From IMG/VR virus record IMGVR_UViG_3300039239_000037, positions 6,152-70,151 of that record: 64,000 nt of DNA; one strand, written 5' to 3'. Shown here one piece after another: positions 9,926 to 64,000 of the stretch. The position numbers were made by a program, and so were the translations under genes. The first letter of the stretch is position 1; each line of letters opens with the position of its first letter. A model generated the notes under the pieces. It was not told where the DNA came from. It worked only from the letters and a program-made list of their open reading frames with translations, and made no database searches. The DNA comes from a virus.

Positions 9926-9953
9926 GGAAGCGCGGTTCGTTTCCAGCCACCCC

Positions 9954-9967: not shown

Positions 9968-9989
9968 CACGGACAGGAGAGGAAACAAG

Positions 9990-39059: not shown

Positions 39060-39407
39060 TCAGCCCCCTGTGGCCCCGCTCCTGCGAGCCTTCTCGTCGC
39101 GCACCCACTGCCTTACCGCCTGGATGCTCGCACCGAGGGCCTCACTCACCTCTCGCGGGGTCATGCCCTCGTCGAGAACCATCGCGGCTCCGCGCAGCCG
39201 ATCCTCCAGGGTCGACTGACGGGACTTCGCTGGCCGCTCGTTCACCCAGGACTGCAGCGTCGCCGCGGGCATGCCGAACTCGCGCGCGACTGGCCTCACG
39301 AAGCCCGCCCTCCCGGGATAACCCTGGGATCCACCCACCGCCTCCAGCTCGCGCACACGCGCCACCGCCGCGGCCCTGAATTCCGCCGAATACCGCGTCC
39401 TACCCAT
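39060..39407 (-). CDS. Double-HTH protein, IS3 OrfA (HTH_Tnp_1)-like
   Basis: MGRTRYSAEFRAAAVARV...VAREFGMPAATLQSW plus a second HTH PREVSEALGASIQAVRQW; no adjacent transposase. Confidence 0.65.
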   Translation of the reverse strand: MGRTRYSAEFRAAAVARVRELEAVGGSQGYPGRAGFVRPVAREFGMPAATLQSWVNERPAKSRQSTLEDRLRGAAMVLDEGMTPREVSEALGASIQAVRQWVRDEKARRSGATGG

Positions 39408-39518
39408 ACGCCTATCAGACCACGCCCCGAAACCCCTCACCAGACACCGACACCCCACCCCCGTTCCACCGCCAGAAGATTTTCCTCCCCAGAAACCCGC
39501 ACCCACTACCCTGTGCCC

Positions 39519-40224: not shown

Positions 40225-40626
40225 TTGAGGACTTGCTCTCTCGACTGGTGTGACCGGCGCCACTACGCGCACGGGTACTGCAAGCTCCACTACGACCGCG
40301 ACCGACGTGGCTATCCGCTCGACGCGCCGCACTGGGCGCAGCATTGCGGCGAGTGGGGACCTTGGTACCTGACGAACCGAGGCTACGTCTCGCGTTCGCT
40401 TACCCACAATGGCAAGCGGATGGCTCAACTCCAGCACCGTTTCGTCATGGAGCAGCACCTCGGCCGCCCCTTGCTTCGATCCGAAGAGGTCCACCACAAG
40501 AACGGCGTCCGCCACGACAATCGGCTCGAGAACCTTGAGCTGTGGTCGAAGTCACAGCCGGCCGGACAGCGCGTAGAGGACAAGCTCGCCTGGGCCCGCG
40601 AGATCATCGCGCTCTACGGGAACTGA
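40225..40626 (+). CDS. HNH endonuclease (HNH_3-like) with N-terminal Zn finger
   Basis: HRFVMEQHLGR...VHHKNGVRHDNRLENL; N-terminal C..C...H...C..HY. Confidence 0.85.
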   Translation: MRTCSLDWCDRRHYAHGYCKLHYDRDRRGYPLDAPHWAQHCGEWGPWYLTNRGYVSRSLTHNGKRMAQLQHRFVMEQHLGRPLLRSEEVHHKNGVRHDNRLENLELWSKSQPAGQRVEDKLAWAREIIALYGN

Positions 40627-43215: not shown

Positions 43216-43823
43216 CCTCTAAGCGCCAAATCTGGGCCGATCTCCAGCGGGCCCAGGCCGAAATCAACGCCCTCACCCACGCCATCCTCCGCCACGTCGA
43301 CGAGGCCGAGGGTCTCGGCCACGAAGCGCCGTCGCCGATTTCGTGGCCCTGGCAATCGCTCGCCGACCGCGCCCTGGCGAGCCTCGAACTGCTTCGCCTC
43401 GCCAACGTCAACGCACTCCAGGCCGACAACGCCGAATTGCGTGCAAAGCTGGCCACCGCGGAGGATGCGGCCGCGGAGGAGCGCGTGGTGATCGGCGTGG
43501 ACTACGCGACGCCCGCGCGCAGTGAGGCGGAAATCCGCCGCGACACGCTCGAGAAGGTCATCGAGGCGCTCGAGCTGAATGAGTACCGGGACGGCACGTT
43601 CACAATCTTCGGCAACCTGTTCACGAACGGGCCCGAGCGCGGATCCGACCGCTTCTGGGCTGACATCACCACCGCGCTCCGCGTGCGCGCCGAGGATGCC
43701 GAGGCCGAAGCCGACGAGGCCGCCGAAGCGCGCATCGCCGCGATCACCCGCCCGGAGCGCACCACCGACGAGGTCTACTCGGCCGGCGAGACGATCATCG
43801 ACTCGAGCGGACGCGATCAGTGA
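43212..43823 (+). CDS. Hypothetical coiled-coil protein
   Basis: 203 aa with 4-bp overlaps; contains an operator-like motif at 43436. Confidence 0.55.
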   Translation: MTSKRQIWADLQRAQAEINALTHAILRHVDEAEGLGHEAPSPISWPWQSLADRALASLELLRLANVNALQADNAELRAKLATAEDAAAEERVVIGVDYATPARSEAEIRRDTLEKVIEALELNEYRDGTFTIFGNLFTNGPERGSDRFWADITTALRVRAEDAEAEADEAAEARIAAITRPERTTDEVYSAGETIIDSSGRDQ

Positions 43824-44371
43824 TCGTCACGCCCGGCTCGGTCGTCCTCGTCGACATGGACGGCGTGCTCGCTGACTGGTACGGCAGCATGTTCGACTGG
43901 CTCGAAGAGGGAGGCGTCGACCCCGAGGGCCTGGACGAGACCCGCTGGGATCTCGGCGCCACCGAGATGCAGCGCAAGGCCATCCGTGCGATCCAGGCCA
44001 CCCCCGGCTTCTACGCCGGGCTCAACCCGATCGGCGGGGCCGTGGAGGGCATGTACCTCCTCCGCGACCTCGGCGCGACGGTGAAGCTCTGCTCCACCCC
44101 GGATGCCACGAACCCCACGTGCGCTTCCGACAAGGTCGACTGGGTCGCCAACCACCTCGGTACCGCGTGGGTGAAAGACCTCATCCTCACCCATGACAAG
44201 ACCCTCGTGCGCGGCGCGATCCTCATCGACGACAAGCCGGAGATCACCGGCGCCGTCGTCCCTGAGTGGGAGCACGTCCTCTTCGATCAGCCCTACAACC
44301 GACACATCACCGGCAAGCGCATCCTCGCTGGATGGGGCGCGCTCGACACCCTCAAGGAGAAGGCCGCATGA
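43820..44371 (+). CDS. 5'(3')-deoxyribonucleotidase (HAD, NT5C-like)
   Basis: VDMDGVLAD, DKVDW, LIDDKP and FDQPYN motifs. Confidence 0.85.
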   Translation: MIVTPGSVVLVDMDGVLADWYGSMFDWLEEGGVDPEGLDETRWDLGATEMQRKAIRAIQATPGFYAGLNPIGGAVEGMYLLRDLGATVKLCSTPDATNPTCASDKVDWVANHLGTAWVKDLILTHDKTLVRGAILIDDKPEITGAVVPEWEHVLFDQPYNRHITGKRILAGWGALDTLKEKAA

Positions 44372-44736
44372 CCCGCATACTCAGCGAGATCCAGGTCGGA
44401 GACCGGATCCGCCTCGCGCCCGGACGGAACAGGCGCGCGTGGTGGACCGTGACCGCCCGAGATCACGATCACATCGTGGCCGTACGTCAGGCGGCCTTCC
44501 AGTCCAAGGGAACCGTCGAGTACACCATCCTGGCGACCATCGACTACCGGTACAACGCCGCTGGACCCGGACTCATCCGCACCACCGTGAACACCATCGA
44601 CGGAGGCTGGGACCTGGGAGGGCGAGTCAAGGAGGGATCCGAGGAGATCATCGCGGCCCTGGCGAGCGGGGACTGGGAGCTCTCACTCCGCCGCCTCCTC
44701 GGCGTCGCCGTCGTGGAGCGCGAGGCCAAGGCATGA
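44368..44736 (+). CDS. Hypothetical protein
   Basis: 122 aa, operon packing. Confidence 0.55.
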   Translation: MTRILSEIQVGDRIRLAPGRNRRAWWTVTARDHDHIVAVRQAAFQSKGTVEYTILATIDYRYNAAGPGLIRTTVNTIDGGWDLGGRVKEGSEEIIAALASGDWELSLRRLLGVAVVEREAKA

Positions 44737-45320
44737 CCGTCATCGGACTCGGCGGCAAGCTCCGCGCAGGAAAAGACGAAATCGCCGATCATCTCGTCAG
44801 GCACCACGGCTACGTCAAGATCGGCATGAGCGACGCCCTCCATGAGGCGATGCTCGCACTCGACCCCTTCGTCGAGGTGATCCGGGAGCACGAACCCGAA
44901 CGCTACTCGGAGATCGTGCGCCAGCTCGGCTACATCGAGGCCAAGAAGATCCCCGAGGTCCGCCGCCTCCTGCAGGCGCTCGGAACCGAGGTCGGCCGGA
45001 AGATGATCGGCGAGGACACCTGGACGAACATCGTCCGCCGACGCATCGACGAGCTCGAGGAGAAGGGCATCCCGGTCGTCCTGACCGGCCTGCGGTTCCC
45101 GAACGAGCTGCAGCTCATCACGGGCAAGTACAGCCCGACCGCCTGGCTTCTCTGGGTCGAGCGGCCCGGAGCGGAAGCACCGTCGACCGCGACAGCGGCG
45201 CACTCGAGTGAGAACAGCGTCGGCGCGGACGATTTTACGTTCGTCCTCCACAACGACGGCACGCTCGAGGAGCTCTACGCCAAGGTCGACGAGCTCGCAC
45301 GATTGGCGGCGAGCCTGTGA
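44733..45320 (+). CDS. Deoxynucleoside monophosphate kinase
   Basis: IGLGGKLRAGKD P-loop, RRLLQALGTEVGR, LRFPNE and HSSE. Confidence 0.85.
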   Translation: MTVIGLGGKLRAGKDEIADHLVRHHGYVKIGMSDALHEAMLALDPFVEVIREHEPERYSEIVRQLGYIEAKKIPEVRRLLQALGTEVGRKMIGEDTWTNIVRRRIDELEEKGIPVVLTGLRFPNELQLITGKYSPTAWLLWVERPGAEAPSTATAAHSSENSVGADDFTFVLHNDGTLEELYAKVDELARLAASL

Positions 45321-47857: not shown

Positions 47858-49139
47858 TGCTGACAGCACCCCGGGAACGCACCACCGCTCGAGCACAGGC
47901 GCTCCTGCAGAAGTGGGGCATCGACCCGGCCGAGGTTTCCGTCGACAACCTCAACCACGAGGGTTACTGGCGGCTCGCGCGCAACACCGTCCACTCCTCC
48001 CTCCTCCCGAGTCGCCTCGCGAACAGCCGCTACGAGCGCATCTGGACGCGCTGGCCCGACGACTTCCCCGCCGACGAGTTCCTCAGCCTCATTCCCGCAA
48101 GCCACCGATGACCACCCACCATAAGGAGAACACCATGAACGAGAACACCGCCAACCAGGACCCCGACGAGACCGCGGCCACTCCCGCAGCCACTCCCGCG
48201 GCCCCGACCCCTGCGGTCGTCCCTACCGCTGACACCCGGATCGAGGCTGAGTCCCTCAGCGTCCTGGACGCCGAGCTCGAGGAGCTCATCGCCAAAGAGG
48301 CCACGGTCAATGCAGCCGTCGACATCCTCCTGAACGCGATCGAGCACGAACGCGGCGTCGAACGAAAAGACATCGCGGAGGTCACCCTCCACGCCAACGG
48401 CGCCGTGCGCCTGCTTACGCGCGGCCGGGTTCGCCGCAGCCTCCGGGTCGACCCCTTCGCGCCCGCCGAAGCCACCGGAGACAGCGAGTGAGCGTCGTCG
48501 CCTCTGGCAGCGGCGAGGTCACCCTGGCCTTCACCGACGGCGAAGAGGGCCAGGTTCACGTCGCTGCCCGCACGCAACGCGGTGCCCAGGACATCCTCGT
48601 GCGGGGCTGGTTCGATCGCGACGCGCTCGAGGACGCCCTGACCGGGTCCAGGAACAAGGACCGTGCGCTCATGATGGAGCCGGCCGCGTGACCGCCGCCG
48701 TGGAGACCCCGCTTCGCTTCCGCCTGGTCGTACAGAAGCGCGGGGCGACGTGGGGCCGCTCTGCCCTGACCGGAAAGCGCGAACTCGTCCGCGACCAGGA
48801 GCGTTACAAGGCGCTCCCCGACACCCCGCCGGGCTTCGTCGAGCGCGAAGGCACCTACGGGGAGATCTCCCACCTCGCCGAGCGCGCCAACAAGGGTCAG
48901 CTCGAGAACTGGGACGGTCACGGCGAACGCCTCGACTACCTGTTCTCTCCGGACCTCGTGCCGGAGGAGGCGGGCGAACCCGCATGACCGAGGCGTTCGC
49001 CGCAGGCGAGCGCGTGATGGTCGAGTCAGTCGTCCCGGTCGTGGTCCAGGAGGATCACGCCGGGGCGACTGTCCTCGTGCTCACACGCGCAGGCCGTCCG
49101 GTGCGGGTGGAGCGAGATCGACTACGTCGGTCGGAGTGA
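47854..49139 (+). CDS. Five small hypothetical genes (47854-48111, 48135-48491, 48488-48691, 48688-48987, 48984-49139)
   Basis: Packed ORFs with RBSs and overlaps. Confidence 0.5.
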
Positions 49140-49335
49140 CCACGCCGTCCCCCAACAGCTCGCCGATCGAAATCACGACGTCGAGCCCCAGCTCCTTCCG
49201 AAGAGCATGCTCGAGCAACGCTCGATCGAACTCCAGGCAGAAGCCCTTCCCCGAGATGAATACACTGCCGTCCCTCGAAGTGGCGTCGAGCTGGATTTCC
49301 CTGGCTCCGTCGACGTCACGCACACGCGTGGTCAT
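49081..49335 (-). CDS. Small hypothetical protein (84 aa) divergent from the DGQHR gene
   Basis: RBS AGGAAGGG then MTTRVRDVDGAREIQLDATSRDGSVFISGKGFCLEFDRALLEHALRKELGL... Confidence 0.5.
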   Translation of the reverse strand: MTTRVRDVDGAREIQLDATSRDGSVFISGKGFCLEFDRALLEHALRKELGLDVVISIGELLGDGVVTPTDVVDLAPPAPDGLRV

Positions 49336-49494
49336 AACCGCGCGACCCTTCCTGTTCATTTTCGGGTGAACGGGGGCCCGCCGGCGGTTTCGGGTCGCCG
49401 ACTTCCCCCCAATTTGCGACTTTAGACTATGCTTCCGACATAGCGAAACGTCTCCCGGACCGGCGGGAGCGACGCATTGTATGGAGAGGACACG

Positions 49495-50907
49495 ATGGAC
49501 ATCCAGGTCCAGCCGTCGACGTTCACGCCGTCGGCCTATCAGACAGATCAGCAGTTCTTTGCCACCAAGTATCAGCAGGGAACGCGCACGGTCTACGGCC
49601 TCGCCGCCACACCTGGCGAGCTTGTGGGCCTCGTGCCGCGCCCCGATCCGGCTGTTCCCACCGAGGGAAACCGTCGCATCAACGCGTCGCACGCCGAGGC
49701 GTTTGCGCGCTACTTCATCGAGAACGAGAGCTGGGTCATCCCCGGCATCATCCTGCGCGCAGTCAACATGTTCCACTTCGAGTCGGTGCAGGAGATCCCC
49801 TCGGCGGCGTTCGGCGTGATGTCCTACCCGAAGCGGCGCCAGGGTGACATCCACATCCTCGACGGGCAGCACCGCATCCTCGGGTTCTTCATGGCGCTGG
49901 ACAAGCTCGACGCAGAGATCGAAAAGGCCCGCTCGTACAAGGCGACCGTGCGGCGCACCATGCCGGACGACAAGCGGGCCGAGATGGACGCACAGAAGGA
50001 GATCGACCGCCTCGAGGGGGCGCGCGATCGCTTCTACAAGCAGCGGGTGGCCGTGGAGATCCAGGTCACCGACGACATCGACGAAGCCAAGCAGATGTTC
50101 TTCGACATCGCCGAGAACGCTCTGGGCATCACCGCGTCGACTCGCGCACGCTTCGACAGTCGCAAGATCGTCAACCGTGCCCTCCCGATGGTGCTCGAGC
50201 ACCCGCTCCTGCTCAACCGGGTGGATCTGGACAAGGACCGCGTTCAAAAAAACAGCCCGTTCTGGATCCCGGCCTCCAAGGTTGTCGAGATCATCCGCAC
50301 CATGCGGAAGGGCTTCGAGGGGCGGGTGTCCCGCAAGGACAACGAGGCGTGGAAGGGCGAGGAGGCCGCGATCGCTCGCGAGACCAACGAGTTCTTCGAC
50401 CTGCTGGTGAAGACGATGCCCCCGGTGAACGCCCTGCTACACAGTCAGATCACCGCCGGCCAGATGCGAGACACGATGCTCCTGGGTGGGCAGACGTTCA
50501 TCCGCATCCTCGCGGGCGTCTACTACGAACTCCGCAAGGATCGGAAGTGGTCCGCGAAGCAGGTCGAGGAGTTCTTCACTGCGCTCGGACCGCACGCGGC
50601 TGGCCGCGCCCACGCCAACTCCATTTGGAAGCAGCACGCGCCCGAGCACCTGTTCAACCTCAACGGCGTCGGACCGTCCGGTCGCCGCGCCGACTCCGTC
50701 GAGCTGATGAACCTCATCACGGATTGGGCGATCGCACGGGCACCTTTCGTCTACGCCGCCCCGGTGCCGGCGCCCGCGGTCGACGCCGATCCCGACGAGG
50801 GAATCGACTTCGCCCCGTCGCACTCCACGAAGCAGCTCGAGCTGGAACTCGAACTCGAGAACGCCGAGATCGCGCAGGAGTCGAAGGCGCGCGCCGCGGG
50901 GAATTAG
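49495..50907 (+). CDS. DGQHR-domain protein (DndB-like, ParB/Srx superfamily)
   Basis: GNRRINASH, ILDGQHR and QMFFDIAENA motifs; own TAGACT (49423-49428), RBS GGAGAGG and downstream hairpin. Alternative start TTG 49477. Confidence 0.8.
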   Translation: MDIQVQPSTFTPSAYQTDQQFFATKYQQGTRTVYGLAATPGELVGLVPRPDPAVPTEGNRRINASHAEAFARYFIENESWVIPGIILRAVNMFHFESVQEIPSAAFGVMSYPKRRQGDIHILDGQHRILGFFMALDKLDAEIEKARSYKATVRRTMPDDKRAEMDAQKEIDRLEGARDRFYKQRVAVEIQVTDDIDEAKQMFFDIAENALGITASTRARFDSRKIVNRALPMVLEHPLLLNRVDLDKDRVQKNSPFWIPASKVVEIIRTMRKGFEGRVSRKDNEAWKGEEAAIARETNEFFDLLVKTMPPVNALLHSQITAGQMRDTMLLGGQTFIRILAGVYYELRKDRKWSAKQVEEFFTALGPHAAGRAHANSIWKQHAPEHLFNLNGVGPSGRRADSVELMNLITDWAIARAPFVYAAPVPAPAVDADPDEGIDFAPSHSTKQLELELELENAEIAQESKARAAGN

Positions 50908-50920
50908 TTCCCGACCACAA

Positions 50921-50961
50921 CGAACCCCCTTCGCGAGCCAACCGGCGGCGAGGGGGGTTCG
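50921..50961 (+). terminator. Terminator hairpin after the DGQHR gene
   Basis: CGAACCCCCTTCGC ... GCGAGGGGGGTTCG. Confidence 0.7.
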
Positions 50962-50976
50962 TCTCGTGCGCGCCCG

Positions 50977-50993
50977 TAGACTGCGCCGCCATG
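50977..50993 (+). promoter_or_regulatory. TAGACT-N8-ATG leaderless late promoter
   Basis: TAGACT 50977-50982, GCGCCGCC, ATG 50991. Confidence 0.65.
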
Positions 50994-51497
50994 AACCAGA
51001 TCCCCATGGCCCGCGGCAAGTCCGTGGATGACCAGCTCATCGAGCTGGCGGCGATGGAGATCAGCGCAGAGGAGATCTCCCGCCGTCTCGGCGGAGCCAT
51101 CACGCCTCCTCGCGTGCGGCAGCGCGTCAGTGACCTCCTCACCGCAGGCGACTGGCTCACCGATGTCCAGAAGGAGCGGGCACTCATCCGCATCCTCCAC
51201 ATGAACCTGATGGCGATGCGCGGCGACGAGCTGAACGTCGACAACGCCAAGCTGCAGCTCCAGTACGCCAACGTCCTCCTCGACCGGCTCGATAAGCGCC
51301 AGGCGGTCACCAGCGAGCAGCTCGAGACTTATAACTCGAACGTCGGTCGCACCCTCGGCGAGGTCGTGATCCATGCGCTCGCATACATGAAGGGAGCGCT
51401 CTCGGGCGAGATTGACTCCCAGCGGTGGGACATCCTCGTCGAGGAAGCCATGCTCAGCGCCCGCCAGGCGATCGCTGCGAAGCAGGTCGATTCGTGA
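50991..51497 (+). CDS. Putative terminase small subunit
   Basis: N-terminal HTH-like (ISAEEISRRLG) and helical body; first gene of the packaging operon. Confidence 0.55.
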   Translation: MNQIPMARGKSVDDQLIELAAMEISAEEISRRLGGAITPPRVRQRVSDLLTAGDWLTDVQKERALIRILHMNLMAMRGDELNVDNAKLQLQYANVLLDRLDKRQAVTSEQLETYNSNVGRTLGEVVIHALAYMKGALSGEIDSQRWDILVEEAMLSARQAIAAKQVDS

Positions 51498-52066
51498 CCG
51501 ATTGCAGCTTTGGTGAGTGCGCTCGCCCGCGCTACGCCCGCTCTCTCTGCAATGCCCATTGGCAGCAGGACCGAGACGGAAAGCCGCTGACCACGCTGCT
51601 CGTCCGCACCCCCGGGCGCGCGTGCGACGTCACCGACTGCGGACGCCCTCACTCTCGACGAGGCAAGTGCCAGACGCACGCGCGCCGCGCGGGCGACGCA
51701 ATCGCCCCGAAGAACGCGCAGAACGCCCAGAACTGCGGCGTCCCCCACTGCGAGAAGCTCGCCGCCACGGTCGGCATGTGTCGACGCCACGCGCGGCTCG
51801 TGTCGCAATACCGTCTCACCGCAGCTCGGATCGAGGAGCTCTACGCGAACCCGCACTGCGGAATTTGCGAAACGACGGATCCCGGCAAGCGCGACTTCCA
51901 CATCGACCACGACCACTCCTGCTGCCCCGGCGGCATGGCCCAGAAGTGCGGCCAGTGCGTCCGCGGCCTCCTCTGCGCCTCATGCAACCACGGCCTCGGC
52001 AACTTCCGGGACGACCCCGCGTTGCTCGAGGCCGCAGTGCGCTACCTCGCGAGGGGTGGCGAGTGA
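51494..52066 (+). CDS. Endonuclease VII-like HNH nuclease
   Basis: CGIC...HIDHDH...VRGLLCASCNHGLGNFRDD plus N-terminal Zn-finger repeats. Confidence 0.85.
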   Translation: MTDCSFGECARPRYARSLCNAHWQQDRDGKPLTTLLVRTPGRACDVTDCGRPHSRRGKCQTHARRAGDAIAPKNAQNAQNCGVPHCEKLAATVGMCRRHARLVSQYRLTAARIEELYANPHCGICETTDPGKRDFHIDHDHSCCPGGMAQKCGQCVRGLLCASCNHGLGNFRDDPALLEAAVRYLARGGE

Positions 52067-53772
52067 TGCTCGACCCCAGAGTCTTCGACGCGGCGATGCA
52101 AGAGATCGCGGAGCGCTCGAAGAAGGCCATCTACCAGCGTGACTTCCCCGCCTGGCAGTACGACATCCTCGGTGAGCGAACCTACAAGAAGATGGAGGAG
52201 ATCGGCCAGACCGCCCTTCTCTCACCGAAACCCCGAACGCTGATCCGCTCCGCGAACGGTACGGCCAAGACCTACCAGGCGTCCCGCTGGGGAATGTGGT
52301 GGGCAACCGCTTTTGACACCGACCAGTCCCTCGTCATCCTCACCGCCCCTACCCTCCGTCAGGTCGAGGGCGGCCTCATGATGTACATGAAGGAGCGGTA
52401 CGGCTACGTCAAGCGCGCCGCGATGGCCCAGGGCAAGCGGATGCCCTGGCCGGGCTGGATCTCCGAGCAGAACGAGTGGAAGTACGCCACCCCCGGCGGA
52501 AACATGAAACTCGTCGTCGGCCGAGTCCCCGCGGCCGCGGATGCGGTCTCCACCCTCCAGGGTGAGCGAAAGACAGGTGGCCGCAACCTCATCATCTTCG
52601 ACGAGGCCGGCGGCGTCTCCCGCGACATCTTCACCGCCACCGAAGCCCTGATGACATCGGGCGACTCGCGCATGATCGGCATCGGAAACCCCGACCGCCG
52701 CGCGACCGCCTTCTTCGACGCGTTCAATAGCCCCACTGAGGCCGCGGAGTACAACCTCTTCACCATCTCCGCCTACGACCTCCCGACCATCACGGGCGAG
52801 CGGGTCTACGGGCCGGGCGAAGACGACAAGGAGGCCCTCATGCTCAAGGGCCTCACGTCGGCGGAGTGGGTCGCTCACAAAGAGCGCGTCTGGATGACCG
52901 GCGGCGAGGAATACTACGACGAGAACCTCGACGTCATGCGACGCCGCGGCGGCACGCCCAACGGCCGATTCCGCGCCAAGGTGCTCGGCGAGTTCCCCGG
53001 CGATGCCGACAACACCTTCTTCGCCGAGGAAGACATTCTCAACGCATTCGGCAACGAGATCACTCCCCCCGACTCCATCCGCCCCGTGCTCGGCTGCGAC
53101 ATCGCCACCACCGGTGAGGATGAGTCGGTCGTCTACGTCAACCACGGCGGCCGCGTTCGCCTGTTCGACAAGACGATCTCCTACATGGATGGGGACGAGC
53201 AGCGTGAGACCACGGGGGTCTGGACGAAGGAGGACACGCTCACCGCCGCCCGCCGCATCAACGCGATCGCCCGGTACACCAATGCGCGCGAAGTCCGCGT
53301 CGACGGCACCGCGGTCGGCGAAGGCGTCACCACCGATCTCATGCGCCTGCCCGAGTTCGCCGAGGATCGCAAGCACTACAGCGTCGTCAGCGTGAAGGGC
53401 GCTCGTCGATCGAGCGACAAGACTCGCTGGAAGAAGTGGCGCGACGAAGTTCACGACCACCTGAACACGTTGATGAAGGACGGCAGGATCGACCTCGATC
53501 CGGCCGACACGCAACTCCGCGACGAGCTCATGCTCATCACATACAAGCTGCTCGATGGCGCGATCAAGATCGACCCTAAGGCCGACATGAAGACGCTCCT
53601 CGGCGGCTCCCCCGACCGCGCCGACGCGTGCATGTACGCCACCCTCGAGGTCGTCAACCCGCCGGACGACGACCCCCTCAGCCAGCTCGAACCCGGTCAG
53701 GCGGTCCTCATCGACCCGAACGACTTCATCGCCGAGCGGTACCAGCGCGACAGCGACACCTACCCGCTGTGA
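52066..53772 (+). CDS. terL: Terminase large subunit
   Basis: RSANGTAKT Walker A variant, IIFDEAGG Walker B, IGNP, LGCDIA nuclease motif and C-terminal SPDRADA. Confidence 0.9.
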   Translation: MLDPRVFDAAMQEIAERSKKAIYQRDFPAWQYDILGERTYKKMEEIGQTALLSPKPRTLIRSANGTAKTYQASRWGMWWATAFDTDQSLVILTAPTLRQVEGGLMMYMKERYGYVKRAAMAQGKRMPWPGWISEQNEWKYATPGGNMKLVVGRVPAAADAVSTLQGERKTGGRNLIIFDEAGGVSRDIFTATEALMTSGDSRMIGIGNPDRRATAFFDAFNSPTEAAEYNLFTISAYDLPTITGERVYGPGEDDKEALMLKGLTSAEWVAHKERVWMTGGEEYYDENLDVMRRRGGTPNGRFRAKVLGEFPGDADNTFFAEEDILNAFGNEITPPDSIRPVLGCDIATTGEDESVVYVNHGGRVRLFDKTISYMDGDEQRETTGVWTKEDTLTAARRINAIARYTNAREVRVDGTAVGEGVTTDLMRLPEFAEDRKHYSVVSVKGARRSSDKTRWKKWRDEVHDHLNTLMKDGRIDLDPADTQLRDELMLITYKLLDGAIKIDPKADMKTLLGGSPDRADACMYATLEVVNPPDDDPLSQLEPGQAVLIDPNDFIAERYQRDSDTYPL

Positions 53773-53777
53773 ACGCG

Positions 53778-53814
53778 TTTGCGTGCTAAGCGCGCCGTAG
53801 ACTCCGCCGCCATG
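53778..53814 (+). promoter_or_regulatory. Operator-like motif plus TAGACT-N8-ATG promoter for the portal gene
   Basis: TTTGCGTGCTAA 53778-53789, TAGACT 53798-53803, ATG 53812. Confidence 0.65.
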
Positions 53815-55344
53815 TCAGCCCAGAACGCCGTCCTCGTTGAGATCTCCGAGGCGATCGCCGAGGCATCCGCCCTCGGGACAGAGGAGGGCGCTCGCGCCGT
53901 CGCTGTGCTGGCCGAGTCGTACGATCGGATGCGCACCATCCTCGCCCGCGAGGACAAGGGCTGGGTCCGCCTCTACGACCGCGGCGCCGACTCCCAGTTC
54001 GGTCTCCGCCTGCAGGACCTCAAGGACTGGGGCCGCAAGCTCGAAGAGTCCGTGCCCGGAGCGCCCTGGATCGGCCGCGGCTTCCGGGTGCGCGCGAACT
54101 TCATCCTCAAGGACGGCATCCAGCACGGCAAAATCCCCGCCGGCGGAAGCCAGGGCGTCCCGGACGTCCAGAAGTTCATCGACGACCCCGACAACCAGGA
54201 GAACTACTTCGGCCCCGCCGCGCGCCGCAAGCGTGAGCACAACCTCTACACGCAGGGCATCGCGTTCTGGATCCTCGACGAGCGCACCAAGAAGATCGAG
54301 GCCATTCCCCTCCGCCAGATCACCGGCGAGCTCATGCACCCAGACGGCATCGGCGTCGTCTGGGCGTACCTGCGCGAGTGGACGCACGTCAACCTCGAGA
54401 CCGGCAAGTCGTACCAGATGAAGATGTGGTATTTCACCGACCTCGCCAAGAGCAAGCGATCGCTCAACATCACGTCGCCGCACAACCGCGAACGCGTCCC
54501 GGTCTCGCAGACCTCCATCATCTTCGCCCAGCACGCCAACCCCGTCGGCGGCCTGGCATACGGCACGCCCGACGCCCTCGCCGCGTGGATCTGGAACGGC
54601 ATCGCCCGCGACGCCTACATGGACGGTCGCTCCGTCACCGAGGCCCTCACGCGGTTCGCCCTCAAGGCGACCGCGAAGAACAAGCCGGCCGCCGACAACG
54701 TCGCCATGCAGTACGCCTCCGCGCACACCGCCGGCGGCATGGCCGTCGTCGGTGGAGCGAATGACATCCAGGTTCTCCAGGGTGCTCAGAAGGGTTACGA
54801 CTTCAACACCCTGCGGCCGCTGCTCGCCGTCATCGCCACCGCGCTCGATATCCCGACCACCGTCCTCACGAGCGACACCGGCGACGACAGCTACGCCTCG
54901 ATCTCCTCCCTCGACCTGCCTACCCGCCTCGCGATGCAGGCGCGCCGCGACGAGCACGTCGCCTTCGAGAAGCGGGTGCTGAGGCAACTCGGCGCCGCAA
55001 ACGCCTCCGTCAGCTTCGTCCCCTACGACGCCGAGGACGAGGTGTACCGCAAGGTCCAGGCCGCGATCCTCGACTACCAGCAGGACACGATCACCCGCCA
55101 GGCTCTCGCCAACCGCATCGCCGACATCTACGGCCGCCCGCACGAGGACGTCCCCGCCGAAGACGAGCGCCCCTCCGTTCTCCTCGCGAAGGCGATGGCC
55201 AAGGCCGTGCCGAAGCCCGCTCCGGCGGGCGGAGACTCGTCCGGCAACACCTCGGTCGCCTCCCCCGCGCAGGGCCGCTCGAACGGCACCGGCGGAATTT
55301 CGGGAGGCTCGGCCTCAAATGACATCCGACGCGACGGCAAGTAG
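53812..55344 (+). CDS. Portal protein
   Basis: About 510 aa directly after terL; IATALDIPTTVL and ISSLDLP portal-like motifs. Confidence 0.85.
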   Translation: MSAQNAVLVEISEAIAEASALGTEEGARAVAVLAESYDRMRTILAREDKGWVRLYDRGADSQFGLRLQDLKDWGRKLEESVPGAPWIGRGFRVRANFILKDGIQHGKIPAGGSQGVPDVQKFIDDPDNQENYFGPAARRKREHNLYTQGIAFWILDERTKKIEAIPLRQITGELMHPDGIGVVWAYLREWTHVNLETGKSYQMKMWYFTDLAKSKRSLNITSPHNRERVPVSQTSIIFAQHANPVGGLAYGTPDALAAWIWNGIARDAYMDGRSVTEALTRFALKATAKNKPAADNVAMQYASAHTAGGMAVVGGANDIQVLQGAQKGYDFNTLRPLLAVIATALDIPTTVLTSDTGDDSYASISSLDLPTRLAMQARRDEHVAFEKRVLRQLGAANASVSFVPYDAEDEVYRKVQAAILDYQQDTITRQALANRIADIYGRPHEDVPAEDERPSVLLAKAMAKAVPKPAPAGGDSSGNTSVASPAQGRSNGTGGISGGSASNDIRRDGK

Positions 55345-55361
55345 ACGTGTAGCATATTTGC

Positions 55362-56192
55362 GTGATTTCGACAGGCTGCGATAGCACCTACGGCAAGGGA
55401 TGCCGGTGCGACGCGTGCAAGGAAGTCAAGCGCGCCAAGGACCGGGCCTACTACGCAGCCAACCGCGACGCAATGAAGGCCAAGATGGCCGAGTACCAGC
55501 GGACCCACCGAGCCCAGCGCAACGCCTATCTCGCCGAATGGCGCGAGGCGAATCGCGAGCATCTTCGGGACTATCACCGCCAGTGGTCGACGGCAAATCG
55601 CGACTTGGTGCGGGCTAGCGGCGCCCGCACCCGAGCGAAGTCAGGCTACTCGGAGCGTCGACTCGCCTATCGCACGGCGAACCGCGAGGCGGAGCGAGAA
55701 CGTCTGCGTCGTTGGCGCGCGGCCAACCCGGAACGCTTGGCCACGCATCGCGCGACCTATCGACTGCGCCACGCAGACTCTCTGCGAGAGAAGTCTCGCC
55801 TGTACTACGCGCAACACCGATCCGAACTGCGAGCCCGAGCCAAAGCTAAGTGGCCACAGGTGCGCGAGTGGCATGCCGAATGGCGATCAGGACCCGGTGC
55901 AGCATCCCGCCGCGCCTCGCACCTACGCCGTCGCGCACGCCTACGCGATCGAGACCATGGGTGCGTCACTACTGACGCTTTGCGTCAAATCTGGGCCGCG
56001 GCCGACGGAGCCTGTGCCTACTGCGGTGACCCCGGCGAGCACATCGACCACGTCATCCCGCTCAACGGCTTCGGCGCGCACTGCGTCACCAACCTGGCCG
56101 TGGCGTGCGCTGCATGCAATCTTGAGAAGTCAGACAGCATCATCCCGGAGGCGGAGCGACCCACGATTCTCGTGGCTTGCGCAATTCTTTGA
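55362..56192 (+). CDS. HNH endonuclease
   Basis: CAYC...EHIDHVIPL...NLAVACAACNLEK; Arg-rich helical linker. Confidence 0.85.
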   Translation: MISTGCDSTYGKGCRCDACKEVKRAKDRAYYAANRDAMKAKMAEYQRTHRAQRNAYLAEWREANREHLRDYHRQWSTANRDLVRASGARTRAKSGYSERRLAYRTANREAERERLRRWRAANPERLATHRATYRLRHADSLREKSRLYYAQHRSELRARAKAKWPQVREWHAEWRSGPGAASRRASHLRRRARLRDRDHGCVTTDALRQIWAAADGACAYCGDPGEHIDHVIPLNGFGAHCVTNLAVACAACNLEKSDSIIPEAERPTILVACAIL

Positions 56193-56223
56193 GGTCGAAG
56201 TGATGTTCCCCCGGCCGCGTCCT

Positions 56224-56240
56224 TAGACTCCGCGCCCGTG
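56224..56240 (+). promoter_or_regulatory. TAGACT-N8-GTG leaderless late promoter
   Basis: TAGACT 56224-56229, CCGCGCCC, GTG 56238. Confidence 0.65.
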
Positions 56241-57440
56241 AAGAACGAAGCCCAGGCCGCCGCGAACGGCGTCGTCGTCCGCGAGAGCGCGTACCGCCAG
56301 GGCACTCGCGCGGTCACTCCTGAGAGCCAGGGCCAGAAGTTCCGAGTCCGCCTGATGGGCTGGGCTCCCGGCGCGACGGTCGTCGAGGGCTCCTCTGCGG
56401 ACTACCCCGTCCCCGCCATCGTCCGCGACTTCGCCGAAGCGTTCCCCGCCGGAACCCGCATGCGCGCCAACCACGACACGATGTGCGAGGCCGGCGGCGA
56501 CGTCCGCCGCATCTTCGCCAAGACCGTCTCCGAACCCGTCGAAGAAGAAGACGGCATGTACGCCGACGCCGTCGCCGCCGAGGGCGAAGCGAGCAACTTC
56601 ATCCGACAGTTCGCAGACGTCATCGGCACCTCGATCACGGCCTCCGTCGAATACGAGCGGGAGTACCTCACCGACGACAACGGCCAGCTCAAGTTCGACG
56701 AGGACGGCAACCCGGTAATGGCGATCCGGAAGGGCCCGCGCGGCCTCCCCATCGTCGAGCGCTTCCTGTCGATGAACGAAGCCCCGTACAACTCGGTCGA
56801 CTTCGTGGAGGTCCCCGGCGCGGACGGCGCAGTCGTCTCACTCGCCCTGGAAAGCGCCAAGCGCATCGTCGACCAGACGATCCTCCGCGAAGCCGCGGGC
56901 TTCGCTATCGGTCTCGCCGGCAAGCGCGAGAAGTCTTCCCTCGGCGTCGCCGAGGGTGCCCAGCCTGGCTCCACCCCGGCGCCCGGATCCACCCACCAGA
57001 AGGACATCAGCATGGACGAGAAGGCCATCAAGGCCATCACGGAGGCGCTCGGCGCCAACGTGGTCGCCGCCCTCAAGCCGCTGACCGACTTCGTTCAGGA
57101 GCAGAAGACGGCCGCCGAGGCTGCCGCCGCCGGGGCCAAGCCGGCCGACGCTCCGAACGCCGTCGAGTCGGCCATCACCGCGCTCGAGTCGATCAACAAG
57201 ATCGACGGCATCGAGCTCGTTCCCACCCTCAAGGAGGCGCTCATCACCGACCTCAAGGCCGGCAAGGACGTCACCGAGGGCATCAAGCTCGCCACGTCCG
57301 TCGCGGCCGAGGCGAAGGCCGCCAAGGGCGCACAGACGCCCACCGCAACCACGACCCCCGGCTCGTACGTCGCCGCCGAGGCCGCCACGGGCGGATCCCC
57401 CGTGAAGAGCTGGTCCGTCGCCGGACTCGGAGGTAAGTGA
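56238..57440 (+). CDS. Capsid maturation protease / scaffold fusion
   Basis: MRANHD, IGTSITA and SVDFVEVPGADG protease-like N-terminus; Ala/Glu/Lys-rich helical C-terminus. Confidence 0.75.
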   Translation: MKNEAQAAANGVVVRESAYRQGTRAVTPESQGQKFRVRLMGWAPGATVVEGSSADYPVPAIVRDFAEAFPAGTRMRANHDTMCEAGGDVRRIFAKTVSEPVEEEDGMYADAVAAEGEASNFIRQFADVIGTSITASVEYEREYLTDDNGQLKFDEDGNPVMAIRKGPRGLPIVERFLSMNEAPYNSVDFVEVPGADGAVVSLALESAKRIVDQTILREAAGFAIGLAGKREKSSLGVAEGAQPGSTPAPGSTHQKDISMDEKAIKAITEALGANVVAALKPLTDFVQEQKTAAEAAAAGAKPADAPNAVESAITALESINKIDGIELVPTLKEALITDLKAGKDVTEGIKLATSVAAEAKAAKGAQTPTATTTPGSYVAAEAATGGSPVKSWSVAGLGGK

Positions 57441-57442
57441 CC

Positions 57443-57910
57443 ATGGCCAAGGCAACCATCGAGGTCTTCGCGCACAGCGACGAGGCCACCGAGATCTGGT
57501 ACTTCGACGCCCCCACCCCGCAGTACACCCTGGCCGTCCAGAACGGCGTGGCCGCGATCGTCCTCACCGACACCGAGGGCGTCGCGGGCACCTCCATCGT
57601 CTACGGCCCCCACACCGTCAGCGGCATCGTCCGACCCGGCGTGTCGAACCGTGACGCGACCGCAGGCGGCGCCGGCAAGTACGCCGCCGGCGTCACGCTC
57701 GACGGTACCTGGGGGTTCGAAGACGTCGTCAGCACGGGCACGACCCCCGCTCCGACCACCACGACCCAGGGCACCAAGGTCTACGTCACCGCCGGTGGCG
57801 CGCTGACCCTGGAGGCCTCCTCCAACACCCTCGTCGGTCGCGTGAACTACACGGCCGACTACACCAAGGCCGCAGGCCGCCTCCCCGTCAAGCTGATCGG
57901 AGCACGCTGA
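57443..57910 (+). CDS. Capsid decoration / minor capsid protein
   Basis: Lies between scaffold and MCP; GTKVYVTAGGALT decoration-like motif. Confidence 0.6.
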   Translation: MAKATIEVFAHSDEATEIWYFDAPTPQYTLAVQNGVAAIVLTDTEGVAGTSIVYGPHTVSGIVRPGVSNRDATAGGAGKYAAGVTLDGTWGFEDVVSTGTTPAPTTTTQGTKVYVTAGGALTLEASSNTLVGRVNYTADYTKAAGRLPVKLIGAR

Positions 57911-57912
57911 CC

Positions 57913-59061
57913 ATGAGCACCCTGCTCGAGAACTACCAGAACCCCATCACGCTCGATGGCAAGCTGGAAGTCCACCCCCTCGTCACCGAGGCAAAGCTGG
58001 CGCGCGCCAAGGAGCTGTTCGAGAAGGCTCTGGCCGGCGACCGCATCGCCGACGCCACCCTCGCCGAGCTGTTCACCAGCTCGTCCATCGGGTTCTCGCT
58101 GACCCACCTCATCAACATGCAGGTGATCCCCCAGCTCCCCGAGGACGAGAAGCAGGTCATCGACGGCCTCGTGACCACGCGCACCGTGCGCGACTTCAAC
58201 CCGGTCACCCTGCTCGACCTGATCGGCCTCGGCAAGCTGAACGGCCCCGGCATCAACTCCCGCGGCGCCCTCGCCGTCGTGCCGGAGGGTACCCGCTACC
58301 CGATCGTCACCGTCAAGGGCAACCAGGACTCGATGTACGAGAAGCTCGGTAAGCGCGGTGCGCGGTTCGAGTTCACCTGGGAGTCGAAGATCAACGACTC
58401 CCTCACCGGCCTGCTCGAGCAGATCCCGGACGCCCTGCGCGACACCCAGCGCGACACCACGTACGAGGAGATCTTCGACGCCCTCGACGAGGCCGCGCTC
58501 CCCGCCTCGGCCGTGACCCTGCCCGACGGCACGATCGTTCCCCCGAACGCTCCCCTGTCGCCGGAAGCGATCATCGCGGCCTCAATGTTCCACGAGCTCG
58601 TGAAGATCAACAACCGCAAGATCGGCATCATCTCGGCCTACAACCTCTTCCTGCCCACCGGCGGCAAGAAGAAGTGGGACTGGATGGTCGAGCGGTTCAA
58701 CTCCGTCATCGAGGAGCAGGAGGGCTCGCTGCGCCTGCGCCCGGCGCCGCTCGGCAAGCTCATGCCGAACCTGACGGTCGTGGAGTCCGACCGCATCCCC
58801 ACCGGCACCTGGAAGCTCGTCCCGAAGCCGGGCACGACCAAGGGCCGTCCGGTCTGGGAGCTGCTCAAGCTCCGCGGCTACGAGGACATCGAGCTGCGCA
58901 TGAAGTCGGACGCCGGCTTCTACCCCGGCGGCGGCACGGTCGACGCGTTCGAGGGCTCCTACGAGGCCGACACGATCTCGATGCGCGCGCGCCTCGTGCG
59001 CGGCTCCGTCCTCTGGGACGACCGCTGGATCGTGGCGTCGAACGGTTCGGGCCAGGCGTGA
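57913..59061 (+). CDS. Major capsid protein (HK97 fold)
   Basis: 382 aa; VPEGTRYP, KRGARFEFTWE and DTISMRARL...G features; followed by a small gene and terminator. Confidence 0.85.
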   Translation: MSTLLENYQNPITLDGKLEVHPLVTEAKLARAKELFEKALAGDRIADATLAELFTSSSIGFSLTHLINMQVIPQLPEDEKQVIDGLVTTRTVRDFNPVTLLDLIGLGKLNGPGINSRGALAVVPEGTRYPIVTVKGNQDSMYEKLGKRGARFEFTWESKINDSLTGLLEQIPDALRDTQRDTTYEEIFDALDEAALPASAVTLPDGTIVPPNAPLSPEAIIAASMFHELVKINNRKIGIISAYNLFLPTGGKKKWDWMVERFNSVIEEQEGSLRLRPAPLGKLMPNLTVVESDRIPTGTWKLVPKPGTTKGRPVWELLKLRGYEDIELRMKSDAGFYPGGGTVDAFEGSYEADTISMRARLVRGSVLWDDRWIVASNGSGQA

Positions 59062-59285
59062 GCAAGCCCAAGCCGATCTCTCTGAGCCGGGGCAGTGCCC
59101 CGGCTCCGGGGGAGAACACGCCTCAGCCCTTCGCCGTCGTGGGCGACCTGCCCGTGGCAACCCCGACGATCACCGGCGGCGTGAAGAAGGGTGTCGCCGT
59201 GGCCAACGCCACGGATGCCGCCTCCACCCAGGCCCGCCTGAACGACCTGCTCGCCTCCCTCCGCACTGCTGGCGTCATCTCCTGA
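59058..59285 (+). CDS. Head fibre-like small protein
   Basis: ATPTITGGVKKGVAVANA...LNDLLASLRTAGVI pattern. Confidence 0.6.
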   Translation: MSKPKPISLSRGSAPAPGENTPQPFAVVGDLPVATPTITGGVKKGVAVANATDAASTQARLNDLLASLRTAGVIS

Positions 59286-59298
59286 CGCCCGCCGACGT

Positions 59299-59322
59299 GG
59301 CCCCTGCCTTCGGGTGGGGGCC
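59299..59322 (+). terminator. Terminator hairpin after the capsid genes
   Basis: GGCCCCTGCC-TTCG-GGTGGGGGCC (cUUCGg tetraloop). Confidence 0.75.
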
Positions 59323-59341
59323 TTCGTCGTTGGCGAAGCGA

Positions 59342-59378
59342 ATAGCGTGCAATCTCAGCCGTAGACTCCGCCGCCATG
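59342..59378 (+). promoter_or_regulatory. Operator-like motif plus TAGACT-N8-ATG promoter
   Basis: ATAGCGTGCAAT 59342-59353, TAGACT 59362-59367, ATG 59376; spacing identical to the portal promoter. Confidence 0.65.
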
Positions 59379-59774
59379 ACCGCAGGAGCCTTCCCCATCG
59401 ACCCGACTACACCCGTCGGGCAGCTCCGCTACCTGCTCGGCGACACCACTGCGACAGCGTCGCCGCAGGCGCCCGCCGGAACCAAGCTCTTCGCCGTCTG
59501 GTCCGACGCGGAGCTCATCGCGGCGATCGCCAACGCCGGAGGAAACGTCCTGCGCGCCGGCGGGCTTCTGGTCACCCAGCTCGCCCTGTTCTACGCCCAG
59601 CAGGGCCAGATGAGTATCAAGGCCGACGACCTCGGCCTCACCATCGGCGCCAAGGGCAGCGATCTCAACACCATCGCACGCACCCTCTTCCAGGAGGCCT
59701 CCGACCGCGACGCAGCGGAAGCGGACTCCTTCTTCGTCGCCGCACCTCTGCGCTCGGCAGGAGCCTGCCTGTGA
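59376..59774 (+). CDS. Head-to-tail adaptor
   Basis: VGQLRYLLGD...WSDAEL...AA adaptor-like pattern after MCP. Confidence 0.75.
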   Translation: MTAGAFPIDPTTPVGQLRYLLGDTTATASPQAPAGTKLFAVWSDAELIAAIANAGGNVLRAGGLLVTQLALFYAQQGQMSIKADDLGLTIGAKGSDLNTIARTLFQEASDRDAAEADSFFVAAPLRSAGACL

Positions 59775-61531: not shown

Positions 61532-61701
61532 GCCCCGTCGACGTCCACAACACCGCAGCCGGCGGCCACGAGCTCGTCGACGTCGACCCCTTCCTCCCCA
61601 CAGGGATCTGCGCGATCTGCGAAGGCGTGGCGCTCGACGAGCGACCGCCGGAGGATCGCGGCCCCGACAACCCGTACGATCCCGCGCTCCCCGCCGACTA
61701 G
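61528..61701 (+). CDS. Small hypothetical protein (CxxC)
   Basis: MSPVDVHN...CAIC; ATGA overlap. Confidence 0.5.
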   Translation: MSPVDVHNTAAGGHELVDVDPFLPTGICAICEGVALDERPPEDRGPDNPYDPALPAD

Positions 61702-61910
61702 AGCAGCCCCTCCGCGCGGTAGTGCTCCACCCGCTCGAGGAACTCCAGCCAGCGTGTCCGCTGGTACTCCGTCTGTAGCTCCGGCTCAAGGCGCACGTCA
61801 CGGCCGCCGCGGTGCGGAACCTCCCACGGAGGCTCCATGCCAGCGCGGAGGTAGGTCAGCTCGCGAGTCTCGTCCACGCCGCCGAGGCGCGCATCGGATC
61901 TTGGATCCAT
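61698..61910 (-). CDS. Small antisense-oriented hypothetical protein in the late region
   Basis: 70-aa ORF convergent with 61528..61701. Confidence 0.4.
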   Translation of the reverse strand: MDPRSDARLGGVDETRELTYLRAGMEPPWEVPHRGGRDVRLEPELQTEYQRTRWLEFLERVEHYRAEGLL

Positions 61911-62115
61911 CCGCGGATCATACCGGCTGAAACTGACGCGCGGCGGGCCCGAAACTCCCGCCGCGCGCGGGGGCCCAAGACCCCACTCGGTCCGGGGCTC
62001 AGGGAAAACCGACGGTCCTAGCGATCAGACTATGGGCCGGAGCTTTCGTTTTCGGGCCCATTTTGGGGCCACGACACCACCTCGGAGCGAACGCATATTG
62101 ACCGCCGCTCGGACC

Positions 62116-62132
62116 TAGACTCCGCGCCCGTG
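62116..62132 (+). promoter_or_regulatory. TAGACT-N8-GTG leaderless late promoter
   Basis: TAGACT 62116-62121, CCGCGCCC, GTG 62130. Confidence 0.65.
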
Positions 62133-62339
62133 AAGAGTGACCGTTACCTGGACCTGCGAACCGGCAAGACCGGCGCCTACGACGGTGGCCACGCTCGCGT
62201 TTTTCGCCAGCTCGAGAAGCTCCCCGACGACGTCACTGTCGTCCAAGGCGGCGACGCTGCGCTGTCCGAAGGAGTGGACGCCGTCTTCGCGTTCTCGACG
62301 GATGCAGACGCCGTGATCCTTCGCGGGGGCGGTGCATGA
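62130..62339 (+). CDS. Small hypothetical virion-region protein
   Basis: Starts exactly at the N8 position of the promoter. Confidence 0.55.
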   Translation: MKSDRYLDLRTGKTGAYDGGHARVFRQLEKLPDDVTVVQGGDAALSEGVDAVFAFSTDADAVILRGGGA

Positions 62340-62983: not shown

Positions 62984-62987
62984 GCCC

Positions 62988-63554: not shown

Positions 63555-64000
63555 TCCTCGAGGAGAGCTCCGCTTCCTTCATCACCCGACCAATCTCCGG
63601 ACCGCGCGGACTGGGCGGCCAGGAGGTTGTCCAGGCGGCCAGCACGCCCTACGCGAGCGCGTCGATTCACCTCACGACCGCACTGAATCGCATCCCGGCT
63701 AGCCTGTGGCCGCTCGAGGAGTGGACCGCCCTTCTCGGCGGCCCCAACGTCGCCGGGGCTAAGGTCATGCGGCCGCGCTACTTCGCTGGTATCCCCGCGA
63801 CCAACGAGATCAAAGCGCGCCTGTTCGCTCTCAACGGCCTCAACCCCGACTACTCCAACTGGGTCGGCCTCACCGTCGGACGCGGAGCCACCCTCCTCAA
63901 CGCCGCCAACTCCGACATCTGGGTTCACGAATACGGCCACTTCGTCGACTCGCAGCTCGGACGCATCCAGGACCAGTACAAGGCGACGTGGAACGCCACC
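63551..64000 (+). CDS. HExxH zinc-metallopeptidase-like protein, 3'-truncated (not in ORF track)
   Basis: ATGA overlap; 150 open codons to the window end, including IWVHEYGHFVD. Confidence 0.6.
   Translation, partial: MILEESSASFITRPISGPRGLGGQEVVQAASTPYASASIHLTTALNRIPASLWPLEEWTALLGGPNVAGAKVMRPRYFAGIPATNEIKARLFALNGLNPDYSNWVGLTVGRGATLLNAANSDIWVHEYGHFVDSQLGRIQDQYKATWNAT

Follow-up and report, generated by a model that had tools for sequence, protein, structure and literature searches.

What a protein that databases label as a DNA sulfur modification factor does in a temperate phage, directly before the packaging genes, is the question raised by this locus. The 64-kb stretch analysed here (the window) is part of a 71-kb IMG/VR "provirus" record, IMGVR_UViG_3300039239_000037; searches of the record cover all 71 kb. 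The window has a GC content of ~67%, of Microbacteriaceae type, and the closest relative of its DGQHR-domain protein, 95% identical, is encoded by a prophage of Microbacterium sp. T32 (L012). The element is a prophage of Microbacterium in which two genes, one for the DGQHR-domain protein and one a small divergent open reading frame (ORF), sit just 5' of the packaging genes. Considered as a whole, the comparative data suggest that this pair most likely serves temperate Microbacteriaceae phages as an accessory regulatory module of two genes, placed after the end of the early arm and before the leaderless promoter of terS. All features listed by an earlier, sequence-only reading of this DNA are present, with small coordinate corrections.

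The larger gene occupies positions 49495..50907 on the + strand and encodes a protein of 470 aa (P0002), analysed by Pfam and NCBIfam profiles, an AlphaFold2 (AF2) model and an alignment of homologues. An ORF of ~470 aa with the motif ILDGQHR had been reported; it is present, with its start ATG at 49495 rather than 49496, and residues 120-130 read HILDGQHRILG. The profile check proposed earlier passes both family cut-offs, with 93.5 bits against Pfam DndB (PF14072; cut-off 29.1) and 65.2 bits against DGQHR (TIGR03187; cut-off 58.85), whereas the score against the DndB equivalog TIGR03233, 26.6 bits, falls far below its cut-off of 328. At E <= 0.01 the Pfam scan returned DndB alone, leaving ParBc (PF02195) unmatched, and at E <= 1 the NCBIfam scan returned TIGR03187 and TIGR03233 only, not TIGR00180. 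Across 50 homologues, down to 25% identity, P50, R60, Y73, D123, Q125, H126, R127, G130, F202, D221 and R325 are invariant. This includes four of the five residues of the DGQHR motif; the fifth, G124, is at least 90% conserved in the same set. Codons that differ between the gene and its T32 counterpart comprise 78 synonymous and 27 non-synonymous changes.

On this sequence evidence, the protein is an orphan member of the DGQHR/DndB family, neither a true DndB nor a partition ParB. The latter identity was rejected by the missing ParBc match, the lack of an HTH-like (helix-turn-helix) match for the C-terminal domain, and the accessory distribution of the gene. An ordinary ParB conserved in all relatives, which the sequence-only reading had set against its own proposal, is not what was found. 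Members of the family are ~410-480 aa long and come mostly from Microbacterium, Agromyces, Cryobacterium and metagenomes; 368 clusters (50% identity) match at E <= 1e-3. Their occurrence is sporadic: of the genomes sampled, 4 of 301 in the host family and 7 of 401 in the order have a match. Among deposited phages (~50,000 records), neither tblastn at E <= 1e-5 nor megablast gave a match, and PHROGs returned near-threshold matches only (best E 0.001), to families without an assigned function. Actinobacterial plasmids carry two distant members (30% identity) as stand-alone genes, one of which adjoins an integrase.

Most members of the family are named "DndB" by NCBI, under the database label "DNA sulfur modification protein DndB". 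DndB/DptB is a repressor of the adjacent dndBCDE operon, whose promoter it binds (PMC4507180), and homology to this repressor is what recommends the proposal, made in the sequence-only reading, that a phage-borne DndB copy represses or jams host phosphorothioation (Dnd/Ssp). Gene content lends it no support. The 71-kb record contains no DndC, DndD or TGT/DpdA (PF01702), which extends to the whole record the earlier statement that the window lacks dndC and dndD. DndC is also missing from the five lysogen genomes that carry members of the DGQHR family, and DndD was not found above its cut-off in four of these (the fifth, G664, lay outside the DndD search). The literature searched held nothing on phage-borne DndB and no paper describing the present phage module. 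Since no dnd genes were found in the phage or in the lysogen genomes searched, and since the protein scores 26.6 bits where the DndB equivalog demands 328, phosphorothioation jamming is unsupported and extremely unlikely. The label without the phosphorothioation genes also implies that this actinobacterial clade of phage, plasmid and sigma-fused proteins is probably misnamed.

DGQHR proteins serve Dnd and Dpd modification systems, and a related explanation is that the protein helps phage DNA modification in a DpdB-like role, together with nucleotide-metabolism genes of the early arm. That arm does encode an NT5C-type 5'-nucleotidase and a dNMP kinase-like protein (window 43820-45320). However, these genes belong to a different operon at a distance of 4-5 kb, the small ORF is the only constant partner of the DGQHR gene, the DpdB model is not matched at E <= 1, and the record lacks TGT/DpdA, DndC and DndD. 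A helper of this kind is thus very unlikely. As a separate observation, an HNH gene is present at window 40225-40626 and a Phage_VG64 protein is also encoded; with the nucleotidase and the kinase, they hint at unusual nucleotide metabolism or modified DNA in this phage.

A profile scan of IMG/VR with the DGQHR family returned 36 loci, and the counts given here use the 31 distinct ones. The partner in the window is an 84-aa ORF on the - strand (P0001; 49081..49335), assessed by its translation, its GC content by codon position, an alignment of homologues and a hidden Markov model (HMM). Its GC1/2/3 values of 0.71/0.44/0.76 are coding-like, and 27 database homologues of 56-93 aa were found, all unnamed and without a Pfam family. 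In 15 homologues from the loci, a conserved N-terminal core of ~55 aa precedes a variable tail, and G10 and R12 are invariant. By HMM, in 25 of the 30 testable distinct loci a member of the small family is the divergent neighbour immediately 5' of the DGQHR gene, across a spacer of 150-290 nt. This family-level conservation led to rejection of a chance ORF; judged by it, the 84-aa ORF is a real gene. The protein has no Pfam, PADLOC or PHROG match, an NCBIfam row at chance level (E 0.011) and no usable match in the Atlas search. Its 3' end overlaps the last early ORF (48984-49139, +) by 59 nt, an overlap that the sequence-only reading does not mention.

The divergent ORF and the shared lower-GC spacer described earlier are borne out (spacer GC ~0.60, flanks 0.66-0.70). 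Because the pair is kept in two loci whose flanks have no detected terminase (L039 and L042), the pairing is tighter than the link to the terminase. Of the "two-gene anti-competitor/defence module" suggested before, the two-gene part stands in these 25 loci; the defence part survives as a serious rival reading, considered below.

The second regularity is position. The genes flanking the DGQHR gene in the window are the small ORF and terS, and the order small ORF (-), DGQHR gene (+), terS, TerL and portal, co-oriented after the small ORF, recurs in ~25 of the 31 distinct loci. terS is seen in 23 of them, and the order is kept where TerL is merely 25-30% identical to that of the window. In L040 and L041 the DGQHR gene adjoins TerL and is divergent from it, and four distinct loci have no terminase in the flank. 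This survey of genomic neighbourhoods, proposed in the sequence-only reading, therefore yields both a recurrent pair and a recurrent slot before the terminase.

The slot can also be empty. Four phages with TerL 38-45% identical to that of the window (L052, L055, L056 and L075) are without the DGQHR module, and in three of these (L052, L055 and L056) the terminator hairpin still precedes a -10 element. L055 and L056 have a leaderless terS, whereas the terS of L052 has a leader with a ribosome-binding site (RBS); a DnaQ-like exonuclease lies slightly upstream in L055, as in the window. Pfam scans of the ORFs upstream of terS in the phages without the cassette gave no alternative known regulator. 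Since these phages keep the same terS junction and the position of the module recurs, the module is a dispensable, self-contained cassette with a fixed place in the genome, and neither a core late-gene activator nor a one-off insertion. The moron-like separation from the flanking operons noted previously is thereby upheld, by the terminator hairpin and by the intact terminator/terS junction of the related phages. The description as an "inserted cassette" holds in that the pair is self-contained and accessory; it fails in that ~25 distinct phage loci have this pair at this position. Two further features of this junction were observed: an HNH endonuclease gene (224 aa, L012:9519-10193) lies between the DGQHR gene and terS in the T32 prophage and is absent from the window, and a tRNA-like sequence (~5310-5390 in L056, a phage without the cassette) stands directly 5' of the terminator and leaderless terS promoter.

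Proximity to the terminase could alternatively indicate a packaging accessory, which would bind near pac or cos or aid the terminase, in the manner of the HNH proteins beside terminases. ParB-like nuclease domains are often annotated near terminases, and the DGQHR gene adjoins terS or TerL in ~27 of the 31 distinct loci, including the divergent L040 and L041. Yet a strong hairpin insulates the gene, as a transcription unit of its own, from terS, phages with related terminases do without it, its plasmid and sigma-fused relatives are unconnected with packaging, and L039 and L042 keep the pair where no terminase was detected in the flank. A packaging role is accordingly improbable.

A different direction is indicated by the longest relatives. 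All eight long homologues examined (743-900 aa) carry the complete two-domain module N-terminal to a full sigma-70 factor, with sigma-70 regions 1.2, 2 and 4 in all eight and region 3 in seven. These fusions (P0185, P0187, P0210, P0213, P0222, P0226, P0228 and P0245) come from Promicromonospora sp. NFX87 (WP_419705846.1), Cellulomonas sp. HZM (WP_051681729.1) and metagenomes, and match P0002 at 1e-27 to 1e-42 with 29-36% identity. They form one clade (support 98) nested in the DGQHR family, beside stand-alone members. When viral contigs were scanned with the fusion alignment and with P0180 and P0190, the stand-alone sisters of the fusions, neither fused forms nor new loci came up, and a metagenome scan with the fusion alignment drew in, through its sigma pattern, only housekeeping RpoD genes. 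As far as domain architecture can tell, the fusions point to transcription, not DNA modification. In a survey published in 2025, a ParB-fold-Sigma70 fusion bound ATP and a DndB-like protein bound both ATP and GTP (PMC12704722, PNAS); the assayed fusion may belong to the present fusion clade.

The phage record encodes no sigma factor of its own: region 2 is unmatched, and a region-4-like HTH reaches only 13 bits (window 39105-39176). One specific form of the transcriptional idea is that the stand-alone DGQHR protein acts as one half of a split DndB-sigma70 fusion. It would then be a partner of the host primary sigma factor, gated by nucleoside triphosphate (NTP), which docks or bars RNA polymerase at the leaderless promoters and at the 12-bp operators described below, with the small ORF as antagonist. 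This form is rather doubtful; if true, it would represent a ParB-fold appropriation of sigma or a phage immunity switch that works without an HTH repressor.

The AF2 model of P0002 (predicted local distance difference test, pLDDT, 94.1) has a ParB/Srx-like N-terminal domain (~20-235), in which the DGQHR motif is followed by a long inserted helical hairpin (125-182). A helical C-terminal domain (~236-430), a flexible acidic linker and a terminal helix (446-469) make up the rest. In VIA-align comparisons the N-terminal domain aligns with the DUF262 NTPase domain of SspE (6jiv_A; Z 6.7 over 148 residues) and with PadC (6ryk_B; Z 6.4 over 99 residues), both low scores. Foldseek found no PDB structure at E <= 0.001, the family profile matched PDB sequences at chance level only, and the BFVD matches, to DndB-like, GmrSD-N and ParB-like viral proteins, are weak. 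Modelled alone, the C-terminal domain (236-432; pLDDT 95.6) has a best solved match of Z 4.3; its second-best match is the helical middle region of BrxU, and BrxU (7p9k_A) aligns with both the N-terminal and the helical domain at Z 4-6. The model is consistent with an N-terminal domain of the ParB/Srx nucleotide-binding fold, DndB/DGQHR branch. Effector domains, such as nucleases or methylases, were found in P0002 neither by the Pfam, NCBIfam, PADLOC and PHROG scans nor by structural comparison of the C-terminal domain.

These structural neighbours also speak for the main rival, in which the pair is a defence, superinfection-exclusion or counter-defence moron. Expressed from its own promoters in the prophage, the pair would shield the lysogen or assist the phage against host immunity, with the DGQHR domain as a sensor of DNA or nucleotides. 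Dnd, Ssp, GmrSD and BrxU systems commonly contain members of the DGQHR/DUF262 superfamily, and SspE and BrxU are the best structural matches. The cassette layout (a possible promoter of its own, a strong hairpin, slightly lower GC), the sporadic occurrence in sampled genomes and the absence from phages with related TerL are all as expected of a moron, and the homologue on a Hoyosella plasmid lies among type I restriction-modification, Pycsar and toxin-antitoxin genes. Against this, neither gene has an effector domain, and the sole PADLOC match of the pair is a weak one to DndB (35 bits). The sigma-70 fusions point to transcription, the slot is fixed beside the late promoter, unlike typical cargo hotspots, and a phage operator-like palindrome precedes the gene in some relatives, which suggests control by the phage circuit. 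On balance, a defensive role is a serious rival, though less probable than the regulator described next.

The tentatively favoured explanation, held at a little short of even confidence, is that the protein is an NTP-gated, DNA-binding transcription regulator of the ParB/Srx fold, which works with its small partner on phage promoters or through the sigma subunit. Several features lead to it: membership in the DndB family and the ParB-like fold matches (SspE, PadC, BFVD); the repression of an adjacent operon by DndB/DptB and the nucleotide binding of ParB-fold-Sigma70 and DndB-like proteins; the fusion of close relatives to a full sigma-70; the lack of an effector domain in P0002 beside a partner of only 60-90 aa; a divergent, switch-like layout with a conserved block around a TAGACT element; the position directly 5' of the late operon in ~25 of 31 loci, across TerL types; and operator-like elements before the DGQHR gene or terS in some loci. 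From these features we infer the NTP gating, the DNA targets, the direction of regulation and the role of the partner. In the proposed mechanism, the N-terminal DGQHR domain would bind, and probably hydrolyse, ATP or GTP, and the nucleotide state would gate DNA binding, contact with the sigma subunit of RNA polymerase, or both. The targets would be the divergent promoter region of the pair itself and phage promoters, which may include late promoters with TAGACT and no -35 element or operators of the 12-bp TTTGCGTGCTAA type. The small ORF would serve as antagonist or co-factor, making the pair switch-like.

The first of these putative targets is the 159-nt divergent control region (49336..49494), examined by sequence, GC content and comparison with T32. 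It contains a -10-like TAGACT (49423-49428), an inverted repeat CTATG-N7-CATAG (49427-49443), a second small hairpin within the 5' leader and an RBS, GGAGAGG (49483-49489), 5 nt before the ATG. The spacer is identical to that of the T32 prophage at 146 of 160 positions, including an unbroken conserved block of ~55 nt around TAGACT, from TTGCGACTTTAGACT onward. The combination of TAGACTATG with an upstream ACTT, seen at the putative DGQHR promoter (49423), recurs only at 37777, within the AT-rich central region. A -10 element had been assigned to this gene before; TAGACT is indeed at 49423-49428, but a two-hexamer sigma-70 scan finds no promoter match in the control region. The RBS assigned with it is present, and in place of the terminator there is a terminator-like, GC-rich hairpin with a 15-bp main stem just 3' of the DGQHR stop (50920..50962, +), for which fold energy and shuffling give a dG of -39.6 kcal/mol and a z of -4.8, with 0 of 200 shuffles as stable; it has no U-tract. 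An equivalent GC-rich hairpin lies 3' of the DGQHR gene in most related loci.

The second putative target is the 12-bp motif. At up to 2 mismatches, TTTGCGTGCTAA occurs 14 times in the window against 1.4 expected, spanning 12955-59353 (for example at 24968, 35052, 40078 and 53778). Three copies (53778, 59342 and 20703) lie ~8 nt upstream of TAGACT elements (at 53798, 59362 and 20695(-), respectively). Related loci carry TTAG-N3/4-CTAA palindromes homologous to this motif. An operator-like TTTAGTCCACTA stands ~30 nt before the DGQHR start in L015, L017, L020 and L024, and an operator-like copy lies within the terS promoter of L015, L020, L024 and L030; an operator common to the DGQHR upstream region and the terS promoter is clear only in L024 and L030. 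Phages without the module carry other palindromes. Exact TTAG-N4-CTAA is not present in the window, where the 4 copies within one mismatch are not above chance, and k-mer enrichment in 28 DGQHR upstream regions did not exceed the shuffled maxima.

Several observations weigh against a regulator of phage promoters. The window's DGQHR promoter holds no full operator, and the DGQHR and terS promoters of the window have no common operator beyond TAGACT. Sharing between the DGQHR and terS regions of the same locus is barely above cross-locus controls (23 loci), and five loci with the DGQHR gene (L014, L018, L022, L025 and L028) have no TTAG-N4-CTAA-type palindrome within 8 kb. No HTH or other DNA-binding fold was recognised in P0002, whose C-terminal domain reaches Z 4.3 at best. 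The hairpin and -10 element kept by L052, L055 and L056 indicate that the module is dispensable for late-promoter architecture, and the defence neighbourhood of the Hoyosella homologue suits the rival reading. Owing to the DGQHR loci without a palindrome, the link between the DGQHR protein and the 12-bp operator remains only possible, and the tests of the protein as binder of the palindrome gave a mixed outcome. An alternative candidate binder is a small HTH protein, weakly similar to sigma-70 region 4 or transposase-type domains, which is encoded at window 39060-39410 (-) in a 2-kb AT-rich region between divergent early operons.

Downstream of the hairpin, and given here as context, the leaderless late promoter (TAGACT at 50977-50982, an 8-nt GC-only stretch and the ATG at 50991) leads into terS, which encodes 168 aa (50977..51497 with the promoter, +). 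terS has no family match and is syntenic and conserved across loci. It is followed by TerL (51517-53772, +; matches phrog_2) and the portal gene (53779-55344, +). In most relatives, and in two of three phages without the cassette, a -10 element ~6-11 nt before the terS start likewise indicates a leaderless late promoter. TAGACT followed by a GC-only 8-mer (CCGCsGCC type) and ATG or GTG is found at six late genes of the window (1087, 50977, 53798, 56224, 59362 and 62116), and the core alone at three more (9954, 12611 and 39851).

Two observations concern the annotation of this region. The TerL ORF of the window encodes 751 aa, against 548-621 aa in relatives, and homology begins near residue 130-185. 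This leaves two readings: a true start further downstream, or an extra N-terminal segment or small gene between terS and TerL. The start of the window (1-12600) has tail-type genes, among them a tape-measure-like ORF of 1363 aa, and head and packaging genes are at its end (50991-64000). From this order, the "provirus" record appears to be circularly permuted or to have boundaries that divide the structural operon. Among the window ORFs scanned, none was identified as an integrase.

Any function found would be new for phage biology, given the missing tblastn matches in ~50,000 deposited phages and the near-threshold PHROGs. If the nucleotide-gated switch is correct, it would also provide a handle on the control of leaderless late promoters without -35 elements in temperate actinophages. 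Several known systems offer partial precedents. DndB/DptB (TIGR03233, PF14072) resembles P0002 in Pfam family, DGQHR motif and a place upstream of an operon open to regulation. In contrast to DndB/DptB, P0002 is ~100 aa longer, scores 26.6 against the equivalog cut-off of 328, is paired with a small divergent ORF, and is encoded by a phage just before terS, with no dnd genes in the phage or the searched hosts. The N-terminal DUF262 (DGQQR) NTPase domains of SspE, BrxU and GmrSD give the best structural matches, but the Z-scores are low, P0002 is without their DUF1524/HNH nuclease domain, and no phosphorothioation or BREX genes lie nearby. In temperate phages of Gram-positive hosts, the late-gene activators RinA, ArpU and LtrC are encoded immediately 5' of terS. 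The slot at the early/late junction is the same; sequence and fold are dissimilar, and the present module is missing from related phages with the same late-promoter layout.

KorB of RK2 and VirB of the Shigella plasmid are ParB-fold transcription regulators of mobile elements, and KorB is partnered by the small KorA. The likeness is by analogy only: a nucleotide-gated ParB-fold regulator on a mobile element and, for KorB, a small partner. Both are canonical ParB/HTH CTPases with parS-like sites, whereas P0002 belongs to a DGQHR/DUF262-like branch, with no HTH detected. Should the nucleotide-gated switch be correct, the ParB-fold regulators of mobile elements would include, beside KorB and VirB, proteins of the DndB type. 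Finally, relative to the ParB-CTPase-fold-Sigma70 fusions (PMC12704722), P0002 stands alone, with an acidic linker and terminal helix where the fusions have a linker and sigma; the likeness is that close homologues of P0002 are themselves N-terminal fusions to a full sigma-70.

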